Of a DNA stretch of 64,000 nt, positions 14,901 through 63,600 are shown one piece after another. A program made the translations under genes and the position numbers. The stretch spans positions 29,990,331-30,054,330 of the forward strand of contig OZ316891.1 in NCBI GenBank assembly GCA_973895155.1. Reading direction: 5' to 3'. The stretch's first letter is position 1; each line of letters opens with the position of its first letter. The stretch comes from Marsupella aquatica (Eukaryota > Plantae > Marchantiophyta). The notes beneath the pieces are model-generated. The model did not search any database. It had not been told where the DNA came from and saw nothing but the letters and a program-made list of their open reading frames with translations.

Positions 14901-16001
14901 ATTCCTAGTGGACCACCATCCCATTGAGTACCAGCATACCTCAGCAGTGAGCCAAGGGGTACATTCCTGTAGTCAATGACTGGACTTGCATCGATTGGTT
15001 TGAACAAAGCTCTCAAAATCTTGTCCTGCAAGTCCATAGAAACTTTAGCAGAATCCAACATGGACTGGAGTCTCCATGTCTCTCTATAAATAGCCTCGCT
15101 CAAAGTCAAAGGAATTTCGTTGAGTACAGCGGTTGAGTAGTCGTTGCATCCAACATTATCAGACAATGGCATAAGAGTTTCTGCACCATCCACCCCATCC
15201 TCTGTTGCACACCCAACATCAAAAGCACAATAGCTTGCTGGGATTGCATCAGGGTCACTTGCATACGTAGACCGAGGGCCATTGACAAAACCAAGCAACG
15301 GTCTGAGGAGTAGCGTGCTTTGTATTCTCCATTTGGAAGTCCTTGACAGCTTTGCAAAATCAGATGGAAGATCTGATTGTTGACGTGAACAATCTCCAAT
15401 CACATCAGAGGACTGCCCTTGCACTATTCTATCTCTTGGTCTTTGGGTCGACACTGCTGCCTGGTGCAAAGGAGGGTGGACCGGAACATGCCGCGCATCT
15501 ATGAGAATGCCTTGTTTATCCTTGAGTCTATGATGACCTCTAGTTCTTTTGCTCACCAAATCAAAGCCGTCAGACATTCGTGAACATCTATACTTGCAAT
15601 CACATCTGACTTTCAAACTCAAATCAAAATCCTCCATGTTGCGCAAGAGTCGTAGACAAATTTTCGCGACAAAAAAAGAGTAATGGACAAGTCTGGGCTG
15701 CCCACTACGTACGTACTAAGTTGTCAAGGTCTATAGTATACTTCTGATTGAGTCATTCATTAGCTTCACAGGTCCTGATCCTGTGCGGTCCCCGGCCTAC
15801 CCTTATCGCAGCCCAGAATTGACTCACAGCCTGGATGTGCTGGGATTTGGTGCTGGGATGTGGTGCATTGCATTGAAAGCATATTTGAGCACTTGTGGGG
15901 CCAGTTAATTGAAAAACAAGCCTACGGTAGTACTATACGTGAACCCAGCTTTGGCCTTTGGGCACATGTGGGGCCAGTTTATCAGTTCTTTGGCGGGCCC
16001 C

Positions 16002-41600: not shown

Positions 41601-42399
41601 CCCAGTAAAGCACCATGTCTCGATAGAAAAAGGCTTGAGGCAATGATGAATGCGAAGATATCTCGAGGAAAAACCTTCAGAGAAGTCAAAGAAGATGTAA
41701 TTGATCATTGTAAAAGCATGCTCACATATAGTGATGAAAACGTTGAGAGAGTTTTAAAAGAGTATGAATTGAGTAACCTCCTCAGCCAGAATTGGATATA
41801 CTATTTCCCATCAAAGATGCCAGTTGGACCACTTAAAGGTTAGTCAGCCGAAACCATATACTTGATTAATTTTAATACATTCACTAACTTGATTGCACAA
41901 ATGAAATTTTGAAATCTGATTGTTGTTCCTCTGTTTCAGATGAGAAGTCTACTATCTTTGAAGATGAAATCAACACTGGAGAGTATGAATCAAGTGAGGA
42001 GGAGCCAAACGTTGCAGAAGAACCAGGGTCAGAATCTGAAAACCAAGACGATGATGAAGAACCAGGGTCAGAATCTGGAAACCAAGACGAGAGCTCAAAT
42101 GAGTCCATGAGTGCAGACAATCATTCAAAGAAGCGGAAGAATATGGGTGACAAAAGTGACATGGAGACTTTACAGCATAAGAGAAGTCAAAACAGGAGAC
42201 GAGTTGATACTCGTCAAAAGTATACAAAAAGGAAGCAGAAACCAACCAGCGGTACCGATGACTCCGAACAGGAGTTTGATGACAATTGGAGGGAGCGGCG
42301 GATGAAAGAAAAACAAGATCAAAAACAGCAAGCAGATGAGAAAGAGCAAAGGCAATTTACATACACTGAAGAAGGAGGAGGGGCGGATGAGGAGCAGGG

Positions 42400-42835
42400 A
42401 AAAACTAACCTGGATGGTGAAGGAGATGAAGATGGTGATCGTGATGAGAATGAAGGATATGGAGGTGGTGCAGGAGATGAGAATGAAGGAGATGGAGGTG
42501 GTGATGAGAAGGAAGGACATGGAGGTGATGATGAGAAAGAAGGACATGGAGGTGATGATGAGAAGGAAGGACATGGAGGTGGTGCAGGAGATGAGAATGA
42601 AGGACATGGAGGTGATGATGGGAAGGAAGGAGATGGAGGTGGTGATGAGAAGGAAGGACATGGAGGTGATGATGAGAAGGAAGGAGATGGAGGTGGTGCA
42701 GGAGATGGAGGTGGTGATGAGGAGCAGGGAAAAACAAAGCTGGATGGTGAAGGAGATGAAGATGGTGATGAGAAGCAAGGAGATGGAGGTGGTGATGACA
42801 AGGAAGGAGACCGAGGTAGTGATGACAAGGAGGAG
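42400..42835 (+). repeat. Coding low-complexity repeat (GGDDEKEGH-type)
   Basis: gatgagaaggaaggacatggaggt units in ORF 41909-43447. Confidence 0.9.
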
Positions 42836-43742
42836 AGCAACAAACAGAGCGATGGATACAAGGGGAAAAATGTAACAGAAGATGGAGAAAGAGAAGAAAA
42901 CTACTGGAACAAAGCCGGTGATAATGATATTGTGAAACTAAATATCCGGAATTATTTTCGATCAGTAGTAAGTCTTGAAGACACAACTCGGCCAGATAAC
43001 ATTTCGGTTGCAGACTGGGAAGTATACTTCCCCGATGAATTGAAACTTCATGCTTGGAATGGGAGACAATTTTGGACTACTGTTTTGAATGATATCTCAA
43101 CTCTAATAACACCTTCAGAGAGAAAAGAGTTCGAGAGAAATAAAATATTTATGGAAGAAGCTTGCTGTCGGATTGGAGAGCCCTCCATTAGCTTGATGGC
43201 CGAGGAGAATGCTTTAATTGACATGACCCGATGCGATCATGCTTGGGCAAAGTTGAATGAAGATACTTCTTCAGCTACAACCCATGGGCCGTCAGATGCG
43301 AGGTCAGATGGCAACGAAGGTGATCAGATGGAACCAAATTCTCTCAATGAAGAACAGGAAAATGAAATAGATGAAGCATACGCCAATGTTTTGCTCAATA
43401 TGCCACTACCTTTCCAAGGGCATAAGGTAAACTTTCTATTATCCTAAGTAGCCTTAATGTACTGTCTAGTTTTATTTCATCGCCTCTGGTTTATATTTTT
43501 GAGCTTATTCTAATATCAAATCACCTCATCATGCAACCAGGTAAAGGATGTTCCCACTTTCAGCAAGAGAATTTCTGCATCGGACAGAAATGGGATACAC
43601 ATCATAACTTTGTGATGAGATATATCAACTAAAAAAGCAGCTACTTCAAAGAGTAGAAATGGGGTCTTGCAAAAATTTAGTTTTGTTTGCATAGATTTTA
43701 TAAAACTATAATTCTCTCATTATTTTTTTTCTTGATGTACAG

Positions 43743-44330
43743 GTGAAAAAACTCATTATTCTTGATGTAAACAAAGTTATTTTGTTAAGTGTGTATTCTA
43801 CCAAACTACTTGACCAAAGTGCCGGAGTTCGGGTCAGGTCTAAGTTCATCTACAAGAGGCCGTATTTGCGCGAGGTTCTAGATTTTTGCAAAGCAAACTT
43901 CGACGTTGCAATTTGGTCCTGCATGCAATGGCACAATCTTAAGCCTATCCTTCAAACTGTATTGACTAGTGATGACAGAAAACAGTTAAAATTTATTGCT
44001 ACTCAACAGGACACAGTTCGAGTTGGCAACCATTTCAAAACCCAAAAACCAATTTTCTTGAAAGAGTTGAAAAATCTGCGTTCGAAACTAGAAAATGACT
44101 ATTATAGTGAAAACATTATACTCATTGATGACTCTCCTTACAAAACGTGCCTAAATCCATTTTACTCTTCTCTCTACCCTGAACCGTATTCTGGACAGAT
44201 AGCGGACAATTTTTTCCCCAACACTCTTATTCCATACCTCAAAACACTCCTGAACTCTTCCGAAACAATGCACAAAACCATACAAAACAAATATCCTACT
44301 TGGTCATTGTCTGCACTAGTTGAAGATTGA
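43743..44330 (+). CDS. NIF/FCP1-like (HAD) phosphatase domain exon
   Basis: KLIILDVNKVIL (degenerate DxD motif), KRPYLREVLDFC..NFDVAIWS, FLKEL, ENIILIDDSPYK; begins directly after a cag acceptor. Confidence 0.85.
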   Translation: MKKLIILDVNKVILLSVYSTKLLDQSAGVRVRSKFIYKRPYLREVLDFCKANFDVAIWSCMQWHNLKPILQTVLTSDDRKQLKFIATQQDTVRVGNHFKTQKPIFLKELKNLRSKLENDYYSENIILIDDSPYKTCLNPFYSSLYPEPYSGQIADNFFPNTLIPYLKTLLNSSETMHKTIQNKYPTWSLSALVED

Positions 44331-44551
44331 GAAGAAAATAGAATGATCTGGTCAACTAATGACACTGTGAGGTTAGAGAGTGACCCACATCACCTCAAAC
44401 AATTTAATGAGTACGCTGACGTTGTTTTTCAATAAATGTAAGGACTCTTTTTTTCTCATGCATATTTAATGTTAATGTTTTATTTAGTTTATTGCCTCTT
44501 TTGTTTTGTATTATTTAATGCTCAATTGCTGACATGTTTTGTGTTGTGCAG

Positions 44552-45175
44552 ATTATAAAATTTGTTTCTACCCGAAAATTACTTCTTTTCCATGTTGAAA
44601 GCATTCTCGTCTTCTCCGCTGGGTTCTCAAGGCATTTAAGAAATTCGACTGCCTTCTGCGTTAAGAAGAAAATGATCTTTCCTAGACCATTTGTTCAAGA
44701 GTTTTTAAACTTTTGCTCTGAAAACTTTGACATTGGATTTTGGTCCCGGAATCATACTGATTGGTATGAAGTGGCCGATCATGTTGATCCACTTCTCACT
44801 GAGAAGGCTCTTGAAAGTTTTAAGATACTATGGTGCCGACGAGACGACCTTAAGTCAAATCAGTGTGGAATGAATATCAAGATTGTTATGAAAGAAGCCC
44901 CTGGGTATTTATATGAAAATGTAGTACTCTTAGGAGAGGCAGCATCTATAAGTTTTGATTCTCCATATTATGCTGCACTTCATCCAAAACCCTTTTACGG
45001 TGATCTAGGTGACCAGTTTTTAGAAAACACTCTCATGCCCTATCTTCTAAGACTTGCTCACTCAAAGGTTAGTGCACATAGATTTATTAAATCCAACTAT
45101 CCATTGTGGTCAATGAGGCCTAGAGAAGAATTCCAAAAAAGTAGAGACATTAAGGTGTCTATTTACAAAGATTAA
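44552..45175 (+). CDS. Second, catalytically degenerate NIF/FCP1-like domain exon
   Basis: RPFVQEFLNFCSENFDIGFWS and ENVVLLGE...LHPKPFYGDLGDQFLENTLMPYL parallel the previous exon; the catalytic Asp is replaced (LLLFHVES). Confidence 0.75.
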   Translation: MIKFVSTRKLLLFHVESILVFSAGFSRHLRNSTAFCVKKKMIFPRPFVQEFLNFCSENFDIGFWSRNHTDWYEVADHVDPLLTEKALESFKILWCRRDDLKSNQCGMNIKIVMKEAPGYLYENVVLLGEAASISFDSPYYAALHPKPFYGDLGDQFLENTLMPYLLRLAHSKVSAHRFIKSNYPLWSMRPREEFQKSRDIKVSIYKD

Positions 45176-47821
45176 ATAGAGTTATTTAAATTTGGTTTTA
45201 GATTAAAGACTACGTTTCATATTGTCTGTGATACTACATTCACTATAATAAAAAGTGTGCAAGTTACATTATCTTTAAAGCTCTATCTTGAATTACTCTC
45301 TATTGCAAATGAATTTGATGTTTATGTTAAATTTTTCATTCCGAGTAAACCTCCATGTACTATGTACACTATATGTTCACAAACAGGATATTTTTTATTG
45401 CTACGCTCCATGGATTGTGAAAGTATTATCCTTGTGTATGGTTTAAAGAGAATCATATACCAAAAAAATACATGTATAATACAATCATAATTAAATATAA
45501 TATTAAATAATATACACTATGAATTCCGGACTTAATTAATTCTGGTTTTGTCTAAATTGGGGTTAATGGACTTTTTGATAATTATTGTTATTTTTGTCTT
45601 AGTACATATATTTCTAGAAAATGATGGCAGTTCTAAGTTACTTGGATGTCATCCTAGTTTGAATATAAGATATTTAACTTGTCTAGCATTTCATTGTTGC
45701 TTAGATAATGATCCTATCCAAGCTAGATGTTTTGAGTATAGATGCTATCCAAGCTTATGTGTTATTACACACGTTCTATCTATTTTCAACCAAATGAACA
45801 CTTTTTATCACCCAAATGTTTTTTTAATATTATCCAAATTAATATTTTCTTTGCCCAAATGTCTATTTTTTTGCTCCAAATTTATAATTCATGATGCTTA
45901 AATTTTCATTTTTCATCCTTCAAATTTACAATTCTTATGCCTAAAAGTGTGTTTTTAAATGCCCAAATTTCCAAATCTTCTTTATAATTCCACTTTTAAT
46001 GAATATAGTGATCTTCAAGCTCAGGGGTTTAAAGAAGAAGGGGTTGGCGCCTTCTACGTTCAAGCTTGGGGGTTTCACTTCCACAAAAATGGCATATCAC
46101 GTGCGACGAAGTATAGGGTCATTTTATTGGTTCAAAGGGAAGACTTAAGAATTTTATGAGACTGAAGAACAATAGGGTCTTTTAAATCCAATTATGAGAC
46201 TTATAAGAACATTACTAGGGGGTCCGAGGCCTAAAAACGTCGCAGGTGATGGGGAGGCATCCATATAGTGAGACCCCCATGCCTTCAAGCTTCCAATCGA
46301 TTGTGGCAAGAGCGGGGGTAAGAGTCTTTCGATCGGATCAAGGTAACAATGTAGTGAAGGTTTTCCTGGGGGTTTTTCTGTTTCGGATGCAAGTTACTTC
46401 CATATAGTGTATTGTTGCCCACTCCTATCGTTTAAATGTTGGATAGTAAGTCCAAGTCTATTCTGCTCTATAAATAGATAGAATGTGCGCCTGGCTCTTC
46501 AACGCCAATTCCATTTTGTATACCTCCGTGTCTCTCAGCGCTCATTACTGCCCCAAGATTGCAGACTGAGTGAACATCCTTTTCTTGGCTAAAGTAGTTC
46601 ACGTATGCTAAAGGAAGGCATTTAATATTAGCCACATGCTTCTACCATTGCAATTTTGTAATATTTCCGGTTGAGTCATTCTTATGGGATGGCTTTGTTC
46701 GGGGCTTTGTTTTAATTGATGTTCATTCTTGTCTCTTCTCTATAGGTGAAGCGCAAGGCTAGGCAAACATTTGCTAGGCTTGTTACACTAGCGGAACAAC
46801 AATTGGGGAGAAAGCAGTGGGGAAAGCAGTCGGTCAACTTTTAAGTGTTGGTGAGTATGCTTAACTTCTTGAAATCTGTACTAGGTCCTCGGATGAATAC
46901 CTTGTGTTAAATTTGCCTTATTCTTCAAGGACAGGATCCCACATGTCTTTTTGCAATTTACTAGCAACACGATTTCGGACCGAACGAGAACTATTTCCTC
47001 TAAACAAGAAGTGTATTTTTATTTTCCGCCGAATCTCGCGAAATCGGCAGTTTTTTTCATCAAAAACGCATTTTTGGGGAAATAATATAATTCGTATCGG
47101 AGTTCGGATTGAAACAACAAATTTAATAATGATCAAAACCAATGAAATTCATGCTAACAAACATTCATATTATCAAGGAACAATTAGATCCAAAAAACTT
47201 TCTCCTCGACCTCATATTCACGCTCTCCGAAGATATATGAAAGGTCTTATCTATAAATCCATATCCATGTTTCGAGCCAAGTGCGATAACTGTATCGAAC
47301 TCCGGATTTGAGCCATGAAAACTCCGACCCAATCTCAGGTTTCTCAGTTTTTGGATATTTACCAAAAATATTTTACATCACAGTCGATAAGAATTACTGC
47401 ACGGTTCGTCAAATTTACCTTGCAGTTACCTCCGCAATTGACCAGTTACCTCCGCAAGTGACCATAGTCAACATGCCATTCTTTCAACAGCAATGCGCAG
47501 TCCGATAAAATTATCGCGAAAACTACGGGCGACAAAAATACTAGTCGACAATACTAAGATCCTTCGGTTCATCGGTTAAATTTCAAAATTCCTATCCATA
47601 TGAAGAAAACTCTTCACAATACCAACATCAGATAAATTTATCGCTTCAATTTCAAAATTGCAACTTCCATATGAAGGAACCACTTTTGCAATACCAACAT
47701 CAGATAAATTTATCGCTTCAATTTCAAAACTATATAATTTTGCCACGATGCACGTATGAGAATGAAATTGGAAATCCAAGAAATATACCCTTTTCTGCTA
47801 TTTTGTCGTTTAGGGTGACAG

Positions 47822-47870
47822 CCAATCAAAAGTGGACACGTGGGCCAACCCCTCAACAGACACTATAAAA
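47822..47870 (+). promoter_or_regulatory. Putative promoter of transposase gene C (CCAAT, G-box CACGTG, TATAAAA)
   Basis: CCAAT 47822, CACGTG 47837, TATAAAA 47864; ~150 bp upstream of ATG 48015. Confidence 0.5.
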
Positions 47871-48014
47871 GGGCCACCGCCGATAAGTTTTTGGCGTCAT
47901 TATCGAGAGTAGAGTTTTGGGAGTTGTGTTCTTGGAGCAACATTCTGTCCGTTGAGCCTTTCGTTTTCCCTGATTGTGGGAGGAATGCAAAGCCCCATAG
48001 TGTCTCGGATAGCC

Positions 48015-51000
48015 ATGTCTCAATCAGACACAGATTCACCTTCCAGTTCAGTTGAATCCTCTCCTAATCTTGTCGCTCGCTGTTTGCCAAGTCGCATACT
48101 TAAAGCTCTACCTCTCTCACAGCAAATAGTGCCCAAAATCTCTGACTCAGATTCTGATGCAAGTTCTGGTCCTGAGCCCAGTGCTTACTATGTGTTGCCT
48201 AGTAAACCTGAGAAGCGTCGTCTCTTGAGCGTTCCATCGCCAAGAAATGAGAAACTTTCAATCCCAAGTTTACGTCCGAGACGTCGCTTCAGGCCATCCA
48301 TCCCGGGTTATGGAGAGGGTATCCGGCGACCGATACGCGTATCACAGTCGGCATTCAAGTCGCCACATTCAACACAAGTTCAACGACGGATCTTTCAGTC
48401 TCCGGGTGAGGATCGGGACACAGAAATACAAAGACCAATACGGCGATCGGTCTTTGCATTGCCTGGACTGGATGTGCGAGCAAGCGAGGGAATCGGACTG
48501 CGAAGTCCAGACTCGGTCCTTTCTCGAATGGTCCGTGGGAATCGTGGTGAACAAGTGCTCAATTTTCCAGCAGCTCGCAGAGTCGTTGGGACTGCACGTG
48601 CGAATCCAGAATCTCCAAGTTCTCAAGGGCGGACTGTCATTGGTTCCAGGCTCCAAGTATCGAGGAGAGGTCTTAATGGCGTTTGGGTTATGTATAGAGA
48701 GCCACGGAGTCCAATTGTGTTTTCAGATGAGTCGAGTGCATTGGAGGACGAAGATGAGGAAGGAGATAGAGAATCCGATATAATAGCACAAGTTGTGTCT
48801 GAATGTTTAGAAGGAGCTGTCGAAGAGAATAGCTATAGTCGTCTATTCAGTGGCCCTCTAAATGCGTCAAGAAGATCTATAGAGGATGGTAGCTCAGCAG
48901 AGAGTGATGCATCTATTCGCGAGGCACCTGAAGGACCCGAAAATGCCAATGTTATGAACGGATTTCAGGTTGTAGAGAAGTCAAATGAGCCTAGTAAAAA
49001 AGATAGGGACCGAATTACTAGGAAAGACAATGTGATAAATGACAAATTGAATAGAAACAAAATGAGAGAAATTCATAAGTATTCGTGTTGTGATAATTAC
49101 TGTCTGCAGAATTTGGGTCTGCTAGCCATGACGAAACAACGCACTTATTAAGTCTATGGGCTATCCTACCCAGAGAAGAACGTCCTTCTAAGAGGATGTG
49201 TGAAGGGTGGGCATGCTGGTGCAAGTGGTTACTCAGTTAGCGGTAGATCCTTTTGTCGAAGAAATTATTTTCACTGGGAAATAATCGTCTCCAAAAAATC
49301 TCGCAGAACATATTTTCTCGGATACAGATTGGTACAGTTTGTCGAGAAAAATCACCCGCATATCTTGGTCTCGTCCAATGGCTAGATGATTTTTTTTCCA
49401 CAAATGTCGAGAGTCTCCCCAACAATGATATCTTTCATTTACCTGACAATTGGACAAAAATAGAAGTTTTTGATGCCTTCCAGTCCGAAACTCTAATGCG
49501 CCAAGAACAAGGCATGACATATTCGTGGTTTGTTCGCATTTGGAACAAGGAGTTTCCTCGCGTGCGCATCCCCAAAAGGAGCCGTTTCTCCACCTGCGCC
49601 CCGTGTACTGAATTCAAAGCACTCCGTGACAAGGCAACACTCGAAGCAGAAAAGAGTAAATTTCTAAACCTGTGTGTTACTCCCGATAATTTTATCGGGT
49701 TGAGTATTCATGTGCTTCTTCTTTGGCCATGTGAGTGAATATATCGTTTGAACAGTTTGAATACTGAACCTGATAAATTTATCGTTGTCACAGTTTTTCA
49801 TTACGGTCTTGTGTTTGAATACTGAACCCGATAAATTTATCGTTGTCAGGGTTTATCATTACGGTCTCGTGTTTGAATACTGAACCCGATAAATTTATCG
49901 CTGTCAGGGTTCAATATTGCGGTTATCATGTTTTGTCCTAAATTTTTTTATTGTTGTAGGAAAATTCTCAACATTGCTAAACGAGCATCGGAAGGCACAA
50001 GCAGTCGAGAGGGAGAAGTTAGCAAAGCACCGGAGCAAATGTTACAAGAGTCCGGAGAAATATTTGGGCATCTGTATTGATGGAATGGATCAAAAGAAGA
50101 CAGAGTTACCTCATTTCATTCGGTGTCCGAAGAATATGGATGAAAAGTATTTCATCCCCGTACACATAGTGGGTTGTTTGATCTTCAACAAACAATTAAG
50201 TTCAAATGTTTTTTTGAACTATCCAAATATTCACAATGATAGCAACCTGACCATCCACGTTATCCAGCATATTCTGAATACCTGGGAAGGTCTGCTCCCT
50301 CCAGTGCTTTACCTCCAGCTTGATAACACAGCTCGGGAAAACAAGAATAAATATCTTATGGCATATTTGAATATGTTGGTGGAGATAGGTGTTTTCCAGA
50401 AAATAAAGGTTGGTTTCCTATTGGTGGGGCACACCCATGATCAAATTGATCAAATGTTTAGCAAGTTTTCTTCAAAATTGAACAAGCGGAAAGCTTTCCA
50501 GTTGGACACTCTTTCAGCAATCATAGAGGAATCCTACAATCCTACGACAAAGATATTTTTCGTCGACGAGGTTGCCGATTTCAAGAAATTTGTGTCAGAC
50601 AAGGATCAAGCAAATGACAAGGATATGGATGGTCAGGTTCTACGTACTCTCCACGGCATAAGTGCTCAAAAACAATTTTGGATTACTAGAGTACTCGAAG
50701 ATGGAAGTGCTCGGTCCGTAAATTCCATGCCAAACATCTTTCAACGACAATCGATTGGGGGGAGACGGTGGATTTTGTTCGGTACATTCCATCATCTGGA
50801 ATGTGGGTCGCACCACAAATGGCATTGAAGTCGGCCACGGGAGCGACAGGAGACAATGAAGAGCAAGAGAATGATGCTGAGGAACAAGATGAGCGGGCGG
50901 CTCAAAGTTATTTGTCAACTCTTCAAAAATATTGAAGAGCAATTGAAGATGGATTCAATTACTTTGACGACGCAGATCGTCTATGGTGGGGTCGTTTTTT

Positions 51001-51556
51001 TTACAAACAAAAAGAAGTGATTCAACACCACCTGAAACCTGCACAATGGAGTTTTGATTGGAGTTGGCCCAAGGTAAACGTACAGAGAGAACTTCCGAGT
51101 AATCCTACGGAAGCAGCAATGGAACCTAGCTTGGTTGATAAAGTAGCGGGTGTGAGGACAGTCATGTATTCCGGAAGTCGAAGAAAAGTCACGGAAATTG
51201 GAGACTTCAAGGATCTAGAGGTGAATACTAAATTTGCAATGATATGTGTAGTAGCCCATCAGGATCCCAAGGGAAGACCATTCTGGATGGCAAAAGTGAT
51301 TGAGATTCTCACAAGAATTAACGACATCCCGGAGCGGATTAAAATCACTTGGTATGCAATGGATTCGGAGGAAGAGTCTGCAATTGAAGGCAAATATTAT
51401 CCGGAGAAAGAGGCTTCGTCTAGCAAAGTACTGGAGGATGAATTGTCCCTATCAGAAACTGCCGTTTATGCGTATAACTTTGCGTTATTGGCAAATAGTA
51501 CTCTCCCTACAAACAAGATGAATCATTCAAAATGCAATGGAGACTGTAGTCATTGA
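48015..51556 (+). pseudogene. Sola-like DDD transposase gene C, one intron (49656-49959), several stops/frameshifts
   Basis: Ser/Arg-rich N-terminus, then CCDNYC, FSTCAPC, ICIDGMD, YLQLDNTARENKN, FLLVGHTHDQID and a C-terminal PFWMAKV..ITWY; split across ORFs 47952, 49253, 49917 and 51017. Confidence 0.88.
49755..49912. repeat. ~58-bp intronic tandem repeat x3, each carrying (C/T)GATAAATTTATCG
   Basis: gtttgaatactgaacccgataaatttatcg recurs with palindrome starts at 49771, 49829 and 49887. Confidence 0.9.
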
Positions 51557-52010
51557 TAGTCGAAGCTAGTTTCAGGTTTAAGTTATAATGGTTATCGTTC
51601 CCATGAATATGTACAGTGGTTATCGTTCTAGGACTATGTACTCCGAAGCTATAATGATATCTTTTTTTTTAAATAATTGCAATGACAAACCAGTTAGAGA
51701 ATACAATGCTGCCCAATAAGATTATCGACAACTCCATTCCCCCAGCAGGAACACCGCGATAGTCCGATATATGCAAAGTCCGATAAATTTATCGCATTAA
51801 TAAATGTGACAAAGGTTCTTCCTCATGGAATATAGAAGTCGATAAATTTATCGACAACTTCATTGGTGATTGACATTATCCTAACGAGCACACGCAACTA
51901 ATCTAATAACATGTCGTTGAGATCATCCTCATTTGGTGTTCTGGGAGGCTCTTCCTCAGTTTCTTCTTGTTCCTCTTCGGTCTTGTAGATAGGCAGTAAT
52001 TCCAAAGTCA

Positions 52011-55000
52011 TGAAGAAAACCGGAAAATTTTTAAATTTTTGAAGTAGTTAAACTATATTTGCTGATAACTCGAGTAAACTAAACTCTGCCGAAGATTAAG
52101 AGTTTAAGAGTTGAAGAGTTGAAGTGTTTAAGAGTTTACGGGTTTACGAGTAAACCCTACTTTAATAGTTTAAGAGTTTAAGAGTTGAAGAGTTGAAGTG
52201 TTTAATAGTTTAAGAGTTTAAGGGTTTACGAGTAAACCCTACTTTAAGACTTTACGACTTTAAGAGTTGCGACTTGCGAACTGGCGAGCCCCGCGATTGT
52301 GACAGGCTACGGCTAACTCCAACGGGACTTTGCAACAAAACGAGGAGCAGGCCTTGAAAGGGAAGGAATGCAAGACATAGGCGCTCACTCCTGACTTCTC
52401 TTCCGCTGCATCTTTCATCGCTCTCGACTCCAAACAATTCTTCACGTAGCTCAGTGAGCAGAATTTGAGCTATGGCTGACTTGAACGCTGATGCACAGTA
52501 TCGTGTTCAAACTCTGGCAATTCCTAAGAGTGTGGTCGCTCGAATTCCTTTGGCGCCCGACAGTTGTGAAAATTTGAGAACATCGTTATAGCAGCTCGGA
52601 TTGGAACATCTACTCGCAATCCCTTGGAATGTGGAGCTCGACTCTTATTTACAGGATTTTGTGAGAGGATCACTGATTGCCCCTGAATTTCGACAAACCA
52701 TTCGAGCTCGGCCAAGTTTATGGACAGTTGAGCAAGTAGCTCATGCCTTCCGCTGCCCCTTAGATGGAGAAGGATTATATTCAAAGAAAAAAGATTTGTC
52801 CACTCCTTACTTTTCAGGGATTCGCCATCCTACCAATGGCTGGAATGTGACACAATGTACCTATCCGGATTTGAGGATTCTTTTAGAATTTCTAGTGCCC
52901 ATTCTCCATCCGAAGAGACCAACTATCTGCCCTGTGGCATTGGCGAATACTATCGTAGCTTCTCACAGTGGAGCTATTCAAGTAAATTGGGCGTTGTTAC
53001 TTTTCAATGTGATGCACGATCAGGTGAGAAGTATGAAGGCAGGCAGACCTACTTGTCTACAAGTCTATCTATCTCAGCTGTATCAAGCACATGACTGTTT
53101 ACATCCGGAGGAGAAAACAGAAAGGGGATTACTTCTGATCGAGTTGGACATTGAGGAAGAAATTAGTGTAGCAGAATCAGAACAGGACATTCTGCTGAAT
53201 TCCACTGATCAGGATGTTAATATGGAGGATGTCTCGATAGATGGTTCGGAATTTCCCCCTGAACACAACATGGAGGTCATTTTATACTCTCCAAGAGAAA
53301 TCAGTGGAACAGATCGACTTGAAGCTGAAGGAGACGAGATTTTTCCTGAGCAACAAGAAGTCGTTGTTGAACCAACTATTACTGCCATACGAGGAGTCAC
53401 CATGCCCCCTTTTTCGAAAGCAGAGTCAAATCAGCAGCTTATTGATAAGTTAATCTCTCTCTTCGGTTGCAGTGATGTTGAACTCTACGATGTTGTCTGT
53501 GATTTGAGATCCGAGGCAGTTAGCTTATCCTCTCCATTTCCAGATCAGCTAACCCCTGTCAGGACCGCTTCTCCCATTGAGAGGTCAGCACCAGAAGAAT
53601 TTGTTGCTCTCACTCCTACTGTCCCACAGAATCTACCTCCAGAGCCAAGTGAACCTGTCTCAAGGATAGGAAACACAAGTTGTGTTGCAATTGTAACTGA
53701 CCTACTGGAATTGCTTCAGTGTGAACCTGAGGAGATAATCTCTGTGGTTAGTGACTTAATTCCGAAGTACACAGAATTCAAAGGCCCTTCCAACCCGGGT
53801 GACTGCATTTATAGTCCAGATTCCAATTATGAGCCAACCGAGGGACCTATTTATACCCAACCACAATATGAACATCCTTCTGTTAGACAGGATCTTCCTG
53901 AGGATTCTGATCCACCCTCTGATTTTGATTCCATCCGATCTTATGACAACTCTGTCGAGTCGTCACCAAGGCAAGGATTTGAGGATGTTGACACTACCTT
54001 AAGATCTGATCCAAATTTAGTGGCAGTTGTCACCTCCTCTACTCAAACACCCCGGTATTCTGTCATTGAGAAAAGATATACACGACATCCAGAGTCTCAA
54101 GTGCAGAGGTACGTGGAGACTTGTAAGATAATGCAGGCCAACAGACCCCCAATTGGAGAGTTTTGGAGATACTACTACCTTAAGAAGACTGAGGCCAGTT
54201 ACATATTTGACCTCAGAAGTTTCGGAACTTCAAGAGTGGAGATGGCTCAATTTGATGAGTTCTGGGCTGACTCAATCTACTTCCGACCCATCCTTGCTAT
54301 GATGCTACTTCAAGGGGATGTAGAAGTAGAAGATCCAGATTTGGTTTTGGCCTATTTCGGGAATTTTGCAGCTTACGCTCTGGACTTTGTGATTTCTTTT
54401 CTCATGCAGAGTAAGAAATCCACTTCTCACCAGAACTCTTACATCCCACGAGAGCCGAAGGTTGTCCTTGTTTCCACCAGTTCCCTAGCTGAGAAACAGA
54501 GGATCTGGAATAATGTCACTACTCAGACCCTGGCTCATTTCAACCGATATTTTAAGGATGTCAGATGGAGACTTCGACCCTTCTATTCCAGGATGATGAG
54601 TAGTGATGAGTTCCTGTTTCATTATCCTCAAGTGTATGCTGCCACCTGCAACAACTATGATGTACTAGGGATGTACAGAGAAGCTCTTCGTATAGATTCC
54701 TGTTATTTGATGAAGAGAATGCCTTTGATGTATCCTGAGAGACAACTAAGGTGCCTACCCTACTCTCGAGGATCACCACGTCAGACTAAGCTGATGGAGG
54801 TAACACAGAATCGGACTGTCACCTACGTGGAGCTGCTCGAACCCGATGATATTCGACAACAAGCTTGAAGGAGACTATCTTTTTAGCTAGTATTGAAAAG
54901 TATAGTACTTTTACCAATTTTTCTAAATGTGTTGTAGAGCTTTAAAAGCTATGAGACTTCTTTAGGCTGTAGTCTGTACCTAGGAAACCCTGCTGGAAAA

Positions 55001-56590
55001 ATTTCAGAGTTTTCCGAACCAGGAGTAGAAAGTTAAAAATAGTTGAATCTACTCAATTTTTAGTATACCGAAATTAAGAGTTTAAGAGTTTAAGTTTTTA
55101 CGTTTTTAAGAGTTTAAGTTTTTAAGAGTTTAAGAGTTCATACTTAGCCATTTTTTCCGGCTTTCCACTTATTGAATCGTCGTTTTGACTTTTTGAGGGT
55201 TATGAAGAGGCATGTCTCTTCGACCCTGTGACCTCTTATTCTGTAGTTCATCACTATTTATACCTCTTCCCCTAGTGTAGAGAGATGGTTAAGTTTTGCA
55301 GTTTTGCCTCTCCCTTGTGTTAAACTAGTTGATCATGAATCTATGAGTTCGAGATCAGGTTTAACATTTGGAGAGACTTACCTCCTTCTTGTATTTTGGA
55401 ACCCAAATACTTGAAGTAAAACCTCAGTTATGAATCTCGTGAATTATAATGTCAGATTCCGCTTTGGTGACACATTGTAATCTCACAAGTTCTTAGAGTT
55501 AACTCATTGAGTTTAAGTTACATTGGAAATGATGTTTTCACCTTCATGTTGCTTAGTACCATCTAAATGCTGAAGTATTTATCCTTTTAGATCTTGACTA
55601 AGTATCACTTAGGAAGAAAGGTCAAGACATGTTGCCGGCATTTTAAAAGGATACTCTAGTATGCAGTTTAGATCTGAAAAGCCGTGTGGATTTGGATTTC
55701 CTTAAAGTCATTCCATTATTACTTATGTCTAAGGAGTAACCTTGGTCTATTCCAGACTCCCTTAAGCATACTCTGAGAGATTTTTCCTTGTGTTTTGTTA
55801 ATTGCAATCTTTTGCTTAATTGAAGGTTATCTGATGTTGAGTTATCATCAAAAACTACTCACCGCTGTGGAGCGATCTTCAAAGTACCTGATTAAAGTAG
55901 TCAAGATTGATTACTATGTGTGACACAAGAGCTTAAGGCTTTATTTTTAGTTTATTTCATCAAACCAACCCAATCTTGTTCTTAACGGGAACGAATACCG
56001 AGTTTAGAGACGTAAAAGAGTTCTTTTGATTCTCTATAGCAAACTACATGAGATTTTTGGCGCCGCTGCCGGGGAACAAATCAAGGATGGTTTGAAGTAC
56101 AGGCAGTGAATGCCAAAAGGAGGTTAATTCAGTGAATCTGGAATAAACAAAAGAAAGGTGGAAGTTGACCATGGAACCCCAAGGAGAATGGGAGTTCCCT
56201 CCATTACAAATTCGATCTTTCACAATGGAAAATGCACCAGAGGCATTTAGGGAGAGATTTGGAGGTGAAACTCCTCCCTCAATTTTGGAAAGAAAGAGAA
56301 AAGCTAAAGCCAAGAAGGAAAGACGAAATGGGGCTTAGTGGGGGAATATCCTTCCCAAGAAAGAGATGGTGAGGAAAAGCAGACCTCAGAAAAGAGAAAG
56401 AGCCTTGATTAGGTCAAGGGATAATCAAACACACACGATTATCAGTGCCACTGCAAGAGAGAGAACAACTATTTTGAGAAGGCAGGTGTCCAACATCAGA
56501 GGAGGAAGCTACTTTTGGGGTGGCGAATTGGTGAAGGTTGACTCCTGGGACACCAATATTTTGTATGATTGTGTATTTGTATGCAATCGC
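52011..56590 (+). mobile_element. Truncated Gypsy (Athila/Tat-like) LTR-retrotransposon-derived insert; boundaries approximate
   Basis: PBS-like TGGCGCCGCTGCCGGGGA at ~56058-56075, shortly after ...AACTACA. ttaagag-type repeats at 52095-52265 and 55074-55140. The segment lacks the host element palindrome. Confidence 0.65.
52472..54868 (+). pseudogene. Retroelement-type accessory ORF (plant-mobile-domain-like N-terminus), one premature stop
   Basis: ATG 52472, in-frame TAG 52589, then 755 open codons. The N-terminus (IRARPSLWT...LLEFLVPILHPKRPT...NTIVAS..VNWA..YLSQLY) resembles, from memory, repetitive bryophyte TE proteins. Confidence 0.6.
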
Positions 56591-56663
56591 TTAGAAACCA
56601 ACAAAGGAATGCTAAAGCCGATAAAAATCTTGCGATAGAGCATGCTGTGAGAGGAATGCTTAC

Positions 56664-58865
56664 CGCGTCACTCAATTTCTCCGCCCATATGCCAAGGACC
56701 GAGACATTTGTTTCGTTGGGAAACATTTCTCTACATGTTGCCCAATCTGGCCTACCAGATATCTGCAAAAATAGTTTCTTCACCTTGGCAAGCTTTTTCA
56801 ACTTCTCACCTTCCTTGTGCATTTGATCCAAAGTGATCACCTTCCCGATAACCCTATTCAAGAGACGCTTGACATGCTCCTTATTTGACAGTCCTTGGAG
56901 ACCTCGAAATGAATTTAAGTTGAGGTCACCAGCAAGTTTATTCATTTTAATCTCCCTTACCGTCAAAGGTTTCACCTTTCCCTTTGCGTTCGTCGTTGCC
57001 ACAATTTTTTTGGGTTGTCCTAAGACAATACCTTTCTCCCGCATCTGGAAAATCTGCTCCTGAAGATCCCAAATTTCACCTGTTTGGAAAGCAATTTGGA
57101 AAGCCGGATCATGTTTGGCCATGGAGTCACGAACTCCTGGCGTGTACTCCATCATGCATTCTTGACAACATGCTTCGCGGACATCTTTAGTCGAGCCCAC
57201 ACCCATTTCAAGGAAAATATTGTGACAAGCGCGAACTTGGTCAATTTTAGTCATGTTCTTCCGATACTCCTGGTCATAGTTATGCTGGAAGCCTAACTTT
57301 CGGACCTCGGATCTCGTAAGCCCAGCGTAAACCCAAGCTTCCAGCTCACCATATATTTGCTTCCCGTACATTTTAAACAACTCAGACTTTGCCCGAGCAC
57401 CATGATTCCCTCCAATAATTCTATACTTCCATACCCTTGACTTCAGGATGTCCCAATCTGCGGTTGTGGGACAATCCTTCGGATCCACACACAGCACGAA
57501 CGGGGCACTGAAGTTGGTGGGGTTTTTCATGAGAAGTATCTTGATATTTTCCACATGCAATCTATCCACTGGTCTAATCAAAGTTGTCAAATCCCCCTCC
57601 TCATCAAATATGAGATTGTCGACATGCAGAAGCACAGTTGTCCTTTGCACCCTTCATTGCATCAGAAGACTGAGCTCTGCCTTGATCGCGTCCGTCTCAT
57701 ACATCGAAAGAGCCGTCTCCTCCTCCTGATCAGCCTACAAAAGCGTTGCAAATTCAATTAAGGAAAGAAACTGCGAGATTTTTATCGGAGTTCGCATTTG
57801 TTCAACATAACTCCACAATCCGCAATTCAGGAAATAAATAGCGAGATTTTTATCGGATTTCGTGTTTGTTAAACAGTACAACGACGTAGTACTTACCAAT
57901 GGCGTCGTAGGAACCGCGACTGGAACTGATGGAATTGACGGAGCTCTATCTACTTCTGCAGCCACCGTCTCAGTCCAGCCAGTCCTCTTCCTCTTTGTGC
58001 TAAGTCCAGAACCAGATGGCCCGGATCCCTCGGATCCTTTACTTTCGCTTGGTTTAACGGATGGTCCTTGATGGTTGCCCCGGCCTCTCCCACTACCGCC
58101 AGTTTCCTGGCTCTTCTTCCCACCGTCAGAGGTTCCCGCGGCATCTCCCTTGCCGCTACCTCTCCCTTTCCCTTTTCCACTTCCCGAAACCCGACCAGAA
58201 GTTGTAGGTTCGTCCACGTCAATATGTGTAGAGGATTGCAATGGTTCTTTCCGCCCCAATATTTTATCGGCATTAGAACCACCGCTTCCACTTGAACCTG
58301 GTTTCTTGAAAACAATTTTGCGGACAGGTTTGAACTCTTCACCCACAAGTCTCTTGTACTCTGCGTTCACCCTTGGAAGCATGATGGCATCACAATCTTG
58401 CACATACTGGCCGATCCAAGCCGAACCCATAACATTCATCTCTCTTGCTGCCCGAACATCGGCAACAAGGGGATCTTCTGGATAACTGTCCATCGATTTC
58501 TCATCAAAGTTATCGAGAGTAACAATGAGAGATGTGAAACCCTTGCGCCCACACATTGTCAAGAAACTAAGGCCCTCTGTCAACACTTTTCCCTCCCCGT
58601 GGCCAACCATGAACTCGACAACGGCAACAGCAATGACAGGGCCATACGAAACATTAACCTTTGCCGATTTTTGCAACTGGACCCAAAGGATTGGGGTAAC
58701 ACAGTCTTCGAAACCCGTGGACTGTAATCTGGCGTCACGGAAGTACCATGACTTCTTGATACACTTGATCTCTTCACAAATGTCTTCACTTGTCCAAATT
58801 GCATTGGTGAGGCTTGTCATGAGACTTTCTGCCTCAGCAGATCCACTCTTTCCACTAGCAGCCAT
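56664..58865 (-). pseudogene. ParB/Srx-like domain gene of the 15-kb element; 3' part lost at the retro insert
   Basis: Exon 1 58865-57897, intron 57896-57735, exon 2 57734-56664 with in-frame TGA at 57654-57656. Motif LHVDNL...IRPVDRLHVENIK...PFVLCVD...YRIIGGNHGARAK...LGFQHN. Confidence 0.75.
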
Positions 58866-59088
58866 GGAAAAGTCTGCAAATAAACAAATTCCAATGCAAA
58901 GAGCGATAAAATTATCGCCGCCAATCTCACAGCACATCTGGACACGACATCTCATCACACAAGGACAAAGAGACCGATAAAATTATCGCAAAAGTGAGCC
59001 TTCTTTAAATTGACGGCCGAGTGTACAGGTCGAAGAATCAGCTACGGAACCCTAAATCCAAAACCTTAAGGTTCCCTAAACCTAAACC

Positions 59089-59802
59089 CTAATCATAGTT
59101 GAACCTCGCCAGAGCGAAGCGTTCGATCCGCTTCTTGGGCCATTGGGGAATATGAGTGACGCAATGATCATAAGCCCACAGCCAATGGAAATCAACTTCA
59201 CCAGTCTCAGGATTCACTACTGCTACTGAATACCGGCGTGACGGAATGTCACGACAAGCATGTGTGCAACATGGACAGATCTCACCATTGGCAAGGACGT
59301 TCGTCCACAGGCAACTTACATAGATCAAGTTAAAGAGCCCACAGACCGGCTGGGGGGGGAGTTGACGAATCTTGTATGAATATAGTTTCCCACCAGTGTC
59401 AATAAAAAACTCGGTGGCAAGAGGATTGTCCAGCTCGTCAATCATATCCTGAATCTCATCGAATGCTCTACGTCTGTTGTCGGCATAGAATTCTGGCTCA
59501 TAAGCAGGATTGCCCTTCACAACATGACAATAGTGGAGTATAAAATGTCTTACTGCACCGGTTTTCAGAAAGAGTAGGATAACTCTTCTAGAAAATCCAA
59601 CATATCTATCCCACCGAATATAAATTTCTCCCCCTACCTGATCTACGTAGAAGTGAAATGCGTTATGGTAAAACAGTTTTACTACCAGCCTGCATATCTT
59701 TAAAATTAGTGACTCATCCAGCCTCCTTAGCTGGTCCAGCATGGCTCCATTCCCCCATTCTGGAGGATCCGGGAAGGGTACAAAAATGCGTCGCTCAAGC
59801 AT
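59089..59802 (-). CDS. Cargo ORF of unknown function (237 aa; C-terminal CPCC..C...DHC)
   Basis: Intact ATG-to-stop ORF with protein-like composition, inside the TIR-bounded element. Confidence 0.55.
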   Translation of the reverse strand: MLERRIFVPFPDPPEWGNGAMLDQLRRLDESLILKICRLVVKLFYHNAFHFYVDQVGGEIYIRWDRYVGFSRRVILLFLKTGAVRHFILHYCHVVKGNPAYEPEFYADNRRRAFDEIQDMIDELDNPLATEFFIDTGGKLYSYKIRQLPPQPVCGLFNLIYVSCLWTNVLANGEICPCCTHACRDIPSRRYSVAVVNPETGEVDFHWLWAYDHCVTHIPQWPKKRIERFALARFNYD

Positions 59803-60094
59803 GGCCTGATCACCGAATAGAAATCAGGAATAAATTTTGGAGAACATACTAATTACAATTCTACAAGTTTCATCCAACTTTACAGTACCTTGTATAACGG
59901 GCTGTGAAGCCAATGCACTTGTCAGCTAATCGTCCGAAGAGGCGCAAAAAAATACACTCTGGACCACACAACTCGAAGTCAGGGGAGGCAGAGTCAATTA
60001 TATTCAAAGTGTTTCTTTACAAGCACCCAAAATCGACTAGAGGAATGAGGAGTGCGATAAATTTATCGGATGTTCGCTGCAATGCCTCATCCAC

Positions 60095-60646
60095 TCAGAC
60101 TCGTCCATGCCATGCAAGAATTGTCCGCTTCCCGCTTTCTCCAAGATTCACCCAAACTCTAAGAAACGCATCTAATCGGTCATACGAGAAGCACCCAAGC
60201 ATATCTATGGGAGGGAGGAAATGAGTTTCCTCTCGGAAGACCCTAGCAATATGTAGGTCAAATGAGAGAAGGACGGCATTAGGAATGCTTGCGAGCATTT
60301 TGTTGATGTCATTGATCTCACGGACTGCATATTTCAATAGCGCCCAAAATCATGTACCAACAACAAGATGGTTCCATTTCTTCGAGGTGGCTCCAAGACA
60401 AATGATTGTTCTCATTCGAGTCAGTCGTTCTTCTAGTAGAAGTTTTAGGTCAAGGCCAAGGTGTTCATCTTGTGTGCAAGACAAGGCTAGGAGGGGCCAA
60501 ATGTGAGATTCAACGAGTTCATCGGGAAGTCCATTCAACAAACTTCCGCATTCCACACCGGGCACTTTTCCTCGAATATATTTCCTACGCTCGTGGGCTA
60601 AAACGGATCCCATCTTTGCAATGATTAGATTCTCCGATGCAGCCAT
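60095..60646 (-). pseudogene. F-box-like cargo gene with an in-frame stop
   Basis: LLNGLPDELVESHIWPLL...CLGATSKKWNHLVVGT*FW fits the F-box pattern; TGA at 60350-60352 is in frame with ORF 60095-60337. Confidence 0.55.
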
Positions 60647-61778
60647 GAAGCAGAGCTACCAAAACCACCAATAAAAATACCTTCAATCACCAGGTGTAAC
60701 CAAACACAGTACCAACCCTGCACGACAGTTTAACGATTAGGACTCGTGACGTATTATATTCGCTGCGCAAGGGTAGGACTTGTTTATTTAAATATGTCCT
60801 TCCAAGATGCGCCTCAATGAAAAGGTCGAAACACTCATCGTGAAAGGTTCACCCAAGGGTCTTCGTTCCAAATCTTACAACAGAAGTGAGCCTGTTTGTG
60901 GTACTTGTTATCAAGACGACGACAACAATAGTTACAAGAAAACTCCAAAGAATGTAAACACGCCGTTAACATCAACCTCGAACGAATTGGAACTCGTGCA
61001 TCATTCATTCCGCAGAATTCAATGCGGAGAGGATTCTGCCTATCTCCAGGATCAGTACCACCCATCCACAATGCTCCTATACCGATGGGGAGAACTTTGA
61101 GTCGCACGAGTCTCTTGTACAACCGGCGTGCACGTTTGACACGATTTTCAAGGAAGACAGCCATTTGTCACAATACCTGTTGTCCACGGAGTGCAATCGA
61201 CCTTCCGTTGTGCCTCCTGAACCCGGCAACACTGCGACATCAGAGATGAAGATGAGTCTCCAAACAAAACAAAGGAAAATGATTCTCACAGGAGGATGCG
61301 ATAAGTTTATCGCACTCCACATTCGAATTGAAAATATGACTTCCTCAAACACCTAAGCCCTGAATTCAATCTTTCACAAAAATGACAACTCCGATAAATT
61401 TATCGGATTCTCAATTACTCCTCTTTCCATGAAAGGAATGGAGACTCCGATAAATTTATCGGAATGAAGGCAACACCTCTCTAAACACATTGGATCAAAT
61501 GATTGCAACAGAGGAATGCAAAATGCGATAAATTTATCGCAGTCCGCTCGGATCTGGATATTTTACACTAAATGACTAGTTAGTCTTACATGGAGAACTT
61601 GAACAGGAATGGCTGTTCCGATAAATTTATCGGGTTTTCGGTAGAAAGAGTCAAATCGCTTGGGAGGAATGTAAGACTTGATGGGAGTTTGGTATTCGCT
61701 CTCAGTCAGGAGATATTTGCTCTGGCGAAAGCAAACATTTTATGGGCAGCCTGCTCCTCTTTATATAGGAGACGCTCT

Positions 61779-61841
61779 AAACCATGGTTAATTTCCCCTT
61801 AACCATGGTTAATTTCCCCTTAACCATGGTTAAGTTCCCCT
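61779..61841. repeat. 21-bp subterminal repeat x3 carrying palindrome TTAACCATGGTTAA, next to a minus-strand TATA (61760-61767)
   Basis: Directly visible. Confidence 0.85.
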
Positions 61842-63342
61842 TTTACCTGGGTTAGTGCATGGTCGTTCCTGGATTACGCGGTTCGGACCAAGTTACTCGC
61901 AGTTCGGACTTTTTCACTGACGGAATGTAAAACCCGATGCACGTATCGCTCCCTGCATTCCCGCGGCGATGCAATGGAGGAAAGTGGCGTTTCAGAGAGT
62001 TTTTGCCAGTTTTATCGGTCATTGCATTGCCTTAGAAAAAAAACGGGATCGGGCTAAACGAGAACTCCGACACACTTCTCGGTCGGTCCGAAATCGTGTT
62101 TAGCACACGTCGGGATTGGAGTTGCGCTTATAGCAGTGACCCAAACAGCGACAGAGAATACTCTGAGGGACTGAGGGTGTGTCAATCAGCGCCAACAAAT
62201 CATAGTGAGTTTATCTAGATTTCCAAAATGCTGACTGGTTTCTGGTGAAGTTCCTATCACGCCCTCCAGTCTGAAACAGAGCGCGGGAGCAGAGCAGATT
62301 AGAGCAGAGCAGAGCAGAGAGTGGAAAGCTCCAAAGTCTAGTAGTTTAGTTGGGACACAACCCATACAGTGCTATTTCTCTTGTTGTCATGCATGGTGGA
62401 GCGGTACCTCTTGTTCTGCTCTCTCCTCCTCCACTCTGTCTCTGTGAGCGCTTGCTTTGGTCGGGGCTTTGATGCGTCTTTTGATTTAACTACCTTCGTG
62501 GGTTGAAGCATTTTGTTGAAGCTCCGCGCATCAATGTCAGCTATGTTAAATTTATGCTTTGTAAGGTCAAGTTGTTCGCACCTAGGTCAAAGCTCTCGCG
62601 CGAAGAAATTCTAGCTTTAGCTTGCTACTACATTTGGTAAAGCTTAGCTTTAAAACTCTATCTGTGCTTGGGCTTTTCGAGCAGTCGGTGATCATTGAAT
62701 TTGATGTACTGAAGTTTTGGGAATTATGGCTCCTGTAGTTAGCTTGACCTATCATTCATTTTGTTGTAACAGGTTTGGAGGTGGGCCAAGGCCGGGGCTC
62801 AACGCTTGTCTACTAGTATCGTATTTGGCCGCGGGGTTACATCACTCAGATAAGGTGACACATCATTTTGCATATTAATTGTTTCTCCTTCTCAGCTATT
62901 TTATGATATGATTTGCGACTACTCTCATCTACTTTGTAATTGCCAATGCAGTCCTGTAGTGTCATTCCGAGTCTCGTTTCTTTTATTGAATGGATTTGTT
63001 TGTCTTCTCCGCAGGTGAAGTGCAAGGGCTGCCCGGAAAGTGTGAGTTGTCTTGAAAGTTTAGGCACATTCAGGTCCGGGATTCAGGTTCTTGGCGTCAA
63101 TTGTCGTGACTGTGAGTAGAAGTCCCAGTAGAAGTCAATCTATAAGCAATATGTCACGTGAGACAAAGGTCAATGCCATATGGACCCTTTCTGTGCAAGT
63201 CATAGGGGCATTTGTGTGCTCTGCAGTCAGATTGTGTACTGAAAATTTACTGTGGACTCTGTTGGGTTTGCTTAGCCAACTATTTTGATTTTTGCATGAA
63301 ATTTTGGAGCGATTCATCGCTCTTGCGCGTCCACCCCTAGAG

Positions 63343-63600
63343 ATGGCTGATGTTGGGGGTACAGAGGCCCCTCATCCTGACATTGTTGGTCATGAAGCTT
63401 TGCCTCTGCACAAGACTTCTACGCCGTTAGTTTCCCGTTATTATGCAGTGTCTAGAGGCCGTAGGCCAGGCATATATGAATGTCACGAAGCCGTTGACAA
63501 ACAAGTCCTAGGTTTTAGTGGGAATAGTCATGGGTCATTTAAGACTAGAGCACAAGCGGAGGATTGGCTAAAGACACAGATCTTGGCCGGGTTGGCATAA
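63343..63600 (+). CDS. Small protein consisting of an RNase H1 N-terminal hybrid-binding (Cauli_VI-type) domain
   Basis: YYAVSRGRRPGIY...QVLGFSGNSHGSFKTRAQAEDWL matches the YYAV.xGR.PGIY.W..C..QV.G.....KSF.T..EA consensus; stop follows with no catalytic domain. Confidence 0.8.
   Translation: MADVGGTEAPHPDIVGHEALPLHKTSTPLVSRYYAVSRGRRPGIYECHEAVDKQVLGFSGNSHGSFKTRAQAEDWLKTQILAGLA

Follow-up and report, generated by a model that had tools for sequence, protein, structure and literature searches.

What is the role of a 14-bp palindrome that recurs about 20 times in the non-coding parts of a single large transposon? The question is raised by a stretch of 64,000 nucleotides of Marsupella aquatica (Marchantiophyta; contig OZ316891.1, positions 29,990,331 to 30,054,330 of the forward strand), hereafter the window, which contains a 15,135-bp DNA transposon with terminal inverted repeats (TIRs) and a 4-bp target site duplication (TSD). 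The copies are best read as family-specific sites of the element's own ParB-type protein, used together with a fused methylase for self-marking against silencing (probability of about 0.6). That the ParB-type protein is the binder of the sites is likely; the purpose of its binding is less sure.

The palindrome and its place in the element

The 14-mer, with a core pattern CGA-N8-TCG, was present at 18 sites with two mismatches or fewer, compared to 0.14 ± 0.38 expected, and none of 100 shuffles reached 18, ruling out a chance origin. The nine perfect copies of the original prediction were all found. Its 11 variants were correctly placed and eight of them carry one mismatch each, but 57774 and 57842 diverge by three and 56619 by four, and further copies had been missed: 47284 (two mismatches), 51714 (three), 61935 (four), 62004 (five) and a degenerate CGA-N8-TCG at 62068, inside the right TIR. 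The predicted confinement held in all respects: the 18 sites lie within 46966-62100, with none in the 49 kb outside the element, none in a retrotransposon-like fragment inserted in it, and none in coding sequence, though non-coding DNA makes up 34% of the element without that fragment (manual exon annotation without RNA support, introns being called from GT/AG signals and positions conserved in relatives). Nearly every non-coding gap has copies, as had been noticed; the gap between the open reading frames (ORFs) ORF4 and ORF5 (60646-60834) has none. The element is arranged as follows, with the strand where one applies:

46962..46965, left TSD TAGC, matching the TAGC at the right end
46966..46997 (+), left TIR, 32 nt, 88% complementary
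47284..47715, motif copies upstream of the transposase (47284, 47503, 47630, 47702), from the motif scan
47985..51556 (+), DUF7869 (Sola-like) transposase gene, Pfam PF25273 E 1e-50, with stops and frameshifts
49656-49959 (+), predicted transposase intron with GT/AG ends
49684..49900, four motif copies in that intron (49684, 49771, 49829, 49887), three of them in a 58-bp tandem unit
51714..51853, three motif copies between converging 3' ends (51714, 51781, 51840), from the motif scan
51898..52011 (-), acidic tail, the remainder of the ParB gene's methylase exon, from methylase-exon homologs
52060..56575 (+), long terminal repeat (LTR)-retrotransposon-like fragment replacing the methylase domain, with a 758-aa ORF, from sequence and depth; borders approximate
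56619..56632, degenerate motif copy (four mismatches), remnant of ParB intron 2
56664..57734 (-), ParB gene exon 2, predicted nucleotide-binding fold and helical DNA-binding part, from the ORF and a model
57654-57656 (-), premature stop in ParB exon 2, from the sequence
57774..57855, two motif copies (57774, 57842) in ParB intron 1 (57735-57896), from the motif scan
57897..58865 (-), ParB gene exon 1, a conserved domain of about 180 aa and a low-complexity linker
58904..58988, two motif copies (58904, 58975) in the non-coding 5' region of the ParB gene, from the motif scan
59089..59823 (-), cargo ORF3, no Pfam family
60055..60068, motif copy between ORF3 and ORF4, from the motif scan
60095..60645 (-), cargo ORF4 with an internal stop, an F-box-like stretch by eye only and no Pfam match
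60835..61170 (-), cargo ORF5, Cys-rich, with a homolog (E 3.5e-4) upstream of the ParB gene of a relative, L017
61299..61632, five motif copies downstream of a right-end TATA-like box, from the motif scan
61935..62081, degenerate subterminal copies 61935, 62004 and 62068, the last overlapping the TIR, from the motif scan
62069..62100 (-), right TIR, pairing with the left TIR
62101..62104, right TSD TAGC, matching the left TSD

The transposase gene runs rightwards, and the accessory (ParB) gene and three cargo ORFs leftwards. The window copy is decayed by stops and frameshifts. Each of the four public runs has contigs, many of them diverged, over the full length of the element, and contigs of three runs also show the empty site, 46961 joined to 62101. 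One run (X3) has a further joint, 47890-61283, left by an internal deletion that reduces the element to about 1.7 kb but spares both ends with their sites. DUF7869 is a family that we take to be linked to Sola transposases. The 4-bp TSD (TAGC on both sides) and short TIRs of 32 nt are of the Sola1 type. Sola1 transposons are described as preferring AWWT targets (PMC3845634, consulted in part), and the single insertion seen here has TAGC; the transposon is Sola-like, with membership of Sola1 unproven.

The copies differ in their surroundings, as originally reported, also when copies sitting in longer duplicated blocks were looked for. Flank identity was 0.5 or lower (mean 0.27) in 187 of the 190 pairs of the 20 copies first listed, against a core identity of 0.89; more than half of the distant flanks was common to only three pairs, and 47630 and 47702 have an additional 41-nt block in common. 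Since the flanks are unrelated in 187 pairs, tandem duplication accounts for local clusters only.

The palindrome had been taken for the whole site; the site is larger. The trinucleotide AAT stands at exactly -11 from the core, on one or both sides, in 14 of the 18 sites, and after orienting the 20 listed copies xAAT[AG] starts at -12 in 15 of them (any other offset, three or fewer). A 401-bp stretch with five sites has 36 variable positions in other copies, only one in a core and none in the AAT pentamers: 1/70 core bases are variable versus 35/331 elsewhere (Fisher p 0.011), and 1/95 versus 35/306 for cores and AAT pentamers together (p 0.0008). Motif-bearing units were gained and lost in other copies, judging from 15 joints listed of 98: the number of 58-bp tandem units in the transposase intron varies between copies (joints 49726-49813 and 49733-49870), and the unit around the 56619 copy is duplicated (joint 56646-56581).

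Relatives with cores of their own

A metagenome scan gave five loci whose proteins are 50-63% identical to the ParB-type protein of the window. L013 and L014 contain the complete gene of three exons, a methylase exon among them, with introns placed as in the window, and L015 holds exons 2-3; the converging transposase end is also present in L014 and L015, and L017 has the ORF5 homolog upstream of its ParB gene. The window core does not occur in L013, L014, L015 or L017, nor their cores in the window element, and the fifth locus, L016, lacks the window core too. The four loci have cores of their own, located in the same introns as in the window: CGAGACnnGTCTCG in L013 and L015, CGATCCAAACATCG in L014 and CGAGACGGGTATCG in L017. 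These patterns were picked from the repeated words of each locus, so that the site counts are post hoc; 48 of 49 sites are non-coding (L013 17/18, L014 20/20, L015 8/8, L017 3/3). The window had led to the prediction of an AAT at -11, which is borne out by 68 of 98 half-sites (L013 30/36, L014 20/40, L015 14/16, L017 4/6), other offsets reaching three at most. The proteins of L013 and L015, 80% identical, go with the same core, and those of L014 (64-66%) and the window (50-56%) with different ones; closer proteins have closer cores, in families too few for a statistical test.

These cores bear on the view that the sites serve a host factor or arose neutrally by tandem duplication. Some copies do lie in tandem units, but four different cores obey the same spacing rule in one metagenome, and 187 of the 190 pairs have unrelated flanks around cores conserved among copies. 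This view is very improbable, and its neutral form was rejected on the unrelated flanks and the conserved cores.

A scan of viral contigs gave 12 single motif matches with no cluster, and scans of the same contigs for ParB, methylase and transposase found nothing; the scan of prokaryotic genomes gave one weak methylase match.

The ParB-type gene, its methylase exon and CpG retention

The model of exon 2 (predicted local distance difference test, pLDDT, 89.7; 53 sequences) gave 14 Foldseek matches at E ≤0.001, and among the matches listed all were ParB or Noc, the best being Noc 7ng0 (E 8.7e-6) and ParB 7bnk (E 9.2e-6) over 275-286 columns that cover both domains. VIA-align matched exon 2 to KorB (Z 8.9, root-mean-square deviation (rmsd) 12.8, 167 aligned) and also to PadC, and the DNA-binding domains alone to those of KorB, ParB and SopB (1r71 Z 5.5; 6s6h Z 4.6). 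The Atlas look-up offered DUF3723 and ParB_N as leads, and sequence searches of the PDB with exon 2 and its profile returned no ParB. The protein of exon 2 is thus predicted to fold like ParB/Noc, DNA-binding part included. The exon-1 domain has no Pfam family and no Foldseek match at E 0.001, only weak repeated rows to the DNMT1 RFTS domain; its best VIA match was weak (M18BP1 SANTA, Z 6.2, rmsd 3.0, 88 aligned), followed by PH-like folds. A PH-like barrel is predicted, which might serve as a chromatin contact. The originally proposed selection for a dimeric protein site fits the conserved cores, the predicted ParB/Noc fold and the family-specific cores of the relatives at the same intron positions.

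HMMER found 140 ParB homologs, where a word-based search for long ParB relatives had yielded none from 2033 candidates. Named homologs come from Riccia, Chara and ferns. The N6/N4 methylase family PF01555 was above cut-off in 8 of 39 homologs scanned, which were chosen from the 140 and are mostly long. Riccia sorocarpa has a DUF7869 gene and a ParB-methylase gene with adjacent locus tags, R1sor_010795 and R1sor_010796, and a Chara braunii protein (P0007, 1825 aa) has two tandem ParB-methylase units.

In all three metagenome loci long enough (L013, L014, L015) the ParB gene runs on into an N6/N4 DNA-methylase exon, with PF01555 above the Pfam cut-off in each. The exon is 50-74% identical in 14 of 15 relatives, and D-[IV]-P-Y is present in 15 of 16 aligned methylase sequences. 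The methylase profile found no match in the window copy, and 9 of 29 methylase-exon homologs match the element only at the acidic tail (51898-52011). The gap is occupied by the retrotransposon-like fragment, which has an LTR-like high-depth part and a primer-binding-site-like word near 56060; it has no Pfam match, its retro identity being read from sequence and depth, and no joint across it was among those listed. The depth over the fragment is about that of the rest of the element, so that the damaged, methylase-less form was likely amplified. Marchantia DN4MT1 was considered as the same thing and rejected, as it has no extra domains.

The methylase-less form also bears on a second role for ParB, as a transposition helper that condenses or pairs the ends of the 15-kb element and recruits the transposase, with the methylase secondary. 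Such a role would account for the site clusters and degenerate copies near both ends, for the deletion derivative that keeps both ends with sites, and for a multi-copy methylase-less subfamily that keeps its sites. It fits poorly with internal introns equally dense in sites, with the conservation of the methylase exon and with the CpG retention described below, and we consider it unlikely, though the foremost of the alternatives.

For coding sequence, the observed/expected CpG ratio of the element (0.71-0.83) and of the four loci with motifs (0.73-0.79) is above that of two other DUF7869 genes in the window (0.38 and 0.55), of the retro ORF (0.46) and of L016 (0.53). The higher CpG may hint at function. 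A ParB-methylase that represses the element, as self-restraint similar to KorB or to the rotifer N4-methylcytosine (4mC) enzyme marking transposons, could draw on the sites flanking both promoters, on KorB among the top structural matches and on the multi-copy methylase-less subfamily, but CpG retention is higher, not lower, and the tandem gain of sites resembles that of the VANC targets discussed below. Self-restraint appears improbable.

The two other DUF7869 genes converge (1789-5494, +, and 6266-9326, -), are 38-43% identical to that of the element in the core and are both broken; they lack a neighbouring ParB gene as well as a dispersed palindrome. They argue against the transposase as the reader of a bipartite site (AAT and core) that activates its own copies, in the manner of the AtMu1 transposase and Spm TnpA. 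Transposases can be sequence-specific activators according to a source seen in part (10.64898/2026.08.24.746577), and a degenerate CGA-N8-TCG does lie 20-33 bp inside the right end. The TnpA sites of that source, however, cluster at termini and not in internal introns, and ParB with inverted repeats co-occurs with a different transposase superfamily in red algae. Binding by the transposase is unlikely, slightly more so than the helper role.

The window holds other repeats and genes. A 27-bp tandem array with a spaced inverted word TCGC-N7-GCGA (1119-1627) lies upstream of the first DUF7869 gene, and 17-bp tandem repeats lie at 354-421. Fragments at 11872-15715 (-) have a weak Transposase_21 (CACTA) match (E 0.007), with an 18-bp tandem array at 11651-11894. 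A gene region of several ORFs at 38727-45901 (+), possibly cargo of another large element, has two NIF phosphatase-like domains (43704-45175) and a 27-bp repeat of acidic character. A 21-bp triple repeat (61777-61842) upstream of the right-end TATA-like box has a short word in common with positions 1-15 of L013, and directly outside the element a short ORF (63289-63600) encodes an RNase H1 N-terminal (Cauli_VI) domain.

Proposed self-marking, its known counterparts and its meaning

In self-marking by the element's own protein, a ParB-type dimer would read the 14-bp core, and the constant AAT would either hold the base that the conserved methylase modifies at a set distance or serve as an additional contact. 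The predicted N6-adenine/N4-cytosine methylase, fused to ParB in intact relatives, would mark the element's own DNA, with less CG methylation and more transcription of the element as the outcome. New sites would arise through short tandem duplication and then diverge, and their large number may substitute for spreading by cytidine triphosphate (CTP) sliding. The window copy would depend on intact copies acting in trans or on its own methylase-less protein. A more specific and tentative version, on balance improbable, is a programmable 'address plus writer' system taken over from phages: the ParB dimer would read the core and the tethered methylase would write N6-methyladenine (or 4mC) at the AAT one helical turn away, a private mark shielding only cognate copies from silencing by 5-methylcytosine (5mC). 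If so, a swap of the core and the reading helix would retarget the system.

Several observations weigh against self-marking. The Pfam HTH_ParB score is 20 bits, under the cut-off of 22.6, and was obtained in one of three exon-2 sequences scanned. When the proteins are aligned by eye to the ParB motif, Gly, Ser, Thr or Cys appears to stand where Box II (GxxR) has its arginine: the window and its close relatives read GGNHG, and most others GGxH-S/T/C. This arginine is needed for nucleotide binding in ParB, according to the part seen of 10.1101/2025.10.10.680097, and CTP-driven sliding is doubtful because it appears to be replaced. The degenerate copy at 62068 sits in the TIR, where a transposase would bind. 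L016 (1086 bp, a ParB relative with a stop in exon 2) has no site in its one visible intron of about 100 bp, and the window subfamily has no methylase yet keeps its sites. Core and protein diverge together, but the element as a whole diverges with them, so that ParB is not singled out over the transposase; there are only four independent families, and the four positive loci are all from one metagenome. The CpG contrast, which compares elements of uncontrolled age, has p 0.0002 against one DUF7869 control gene, 0.065 against the other and 0.16 against the retro ORF, and the variant test is biased toward the motif, since contigs are seeded and end at it.

Bacterial ParB-type sites are 13-16 bp long. 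The window protein and sites resemble the ParB/Noc/KorB/VirB group in the predicted two-domain fold and in palindromic sites of similar length, and differ in an intron-containing eukaryotic gene, in the apparent absence of the Box II arginine, in having no ParA, and in an extra N-terminal domain and the extra AAT element. VirB counteracts silencing, phages commonly carry fusions of ParB with an N6/N4 methylase (10.1101/2025.10.10.680097), and other ParB-linked eukaryotic methylases are described in Iyer 2016.

ParB-methylase transposon genes are already described, in Ectocarpus (PMC12477816; this and the other sources compared here were seen in part). Sola1-1_Ec32 is a giant Sola-type transposon with a ParB-like and N4/N6 methyltransferase fusion gene opposite the transposase. 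The window element is similar in its ParB gene on the strand opposite the transposase, in the methyltransferase fused to ParB in its relatives though not in the window copy, and in nested insertions fixed among copies, as is likely here; for Sola1-1_Ec32 self-modification is proposed. The window element differs in the host (brown alga versus plant) and in that cis sites, their grammar and family specificity are defined here, none being reported for Sola1-1_Ec32 in the text available; the likeness is by description only. In Bostrychia, ParB and inverted-repeat arrays travel with unrelated transposases: the Plavaka elements (10.1101/2025.02.11.637652) have a ParB-like PAG3 with adjacent inverted repeats and a separate PF01555 methylase, with self-binding proposed. 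The combination of ParB-like accessory protein, nearby inverted repeats and PF01555 methylase in the same element is alike; the Plavaka transposase is of the EnSpm superfamily, its ParB is fused to a 2OG oxygenase and its methylase to SET, and its repeats stand in tandem arrays beside PAG3, whereas here they are spread over introns.

VANC motifs fill the introns and upstream regions of VANDAL elements by tandem duplication, with anti-silencing established by experiment (PMC5735166). Both systems have a family-specific short non-coding motif with tandem gain and loss, and co-evolution with the accessory protein is proposed for VANC. VANDAL is a Mutator element, its motif is 9 bp, non-palindromic and in one orientation, and VANC is unrelated to ParB and not a methylase; in place of a Mutator transposase and a VANC-family protein, the window has a DUF7869 transposase and a predicted ParB-fold protein. 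By analogy, the element would work like VANC/VANDAL without being a member, and it is most naturally placed among the ParB-methylase accessory systems, as a plant variant. No description of the plant family or of the site grammar was found in the literature, while supplements and Repbase, outside the search, may hold such elements.

Two 2025 papers (PMC12477816; 10.1101/2025.02.11.637652) propose, without test in the parts available, that ParB-like proteins bind and modify their own transposon. The present family adds the cis side: four natural core variants with matched proteins at 50-80% identity. The constant AAT points to a candidate methylated base and the genes of L014 are apparently intact, making the open question directly testable. 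If true, self-marking would stand beside VANC and TnpA as a second, independent means of anti-silencing in land plants, and would bring DNA marks other than 5mC into plant genomes.

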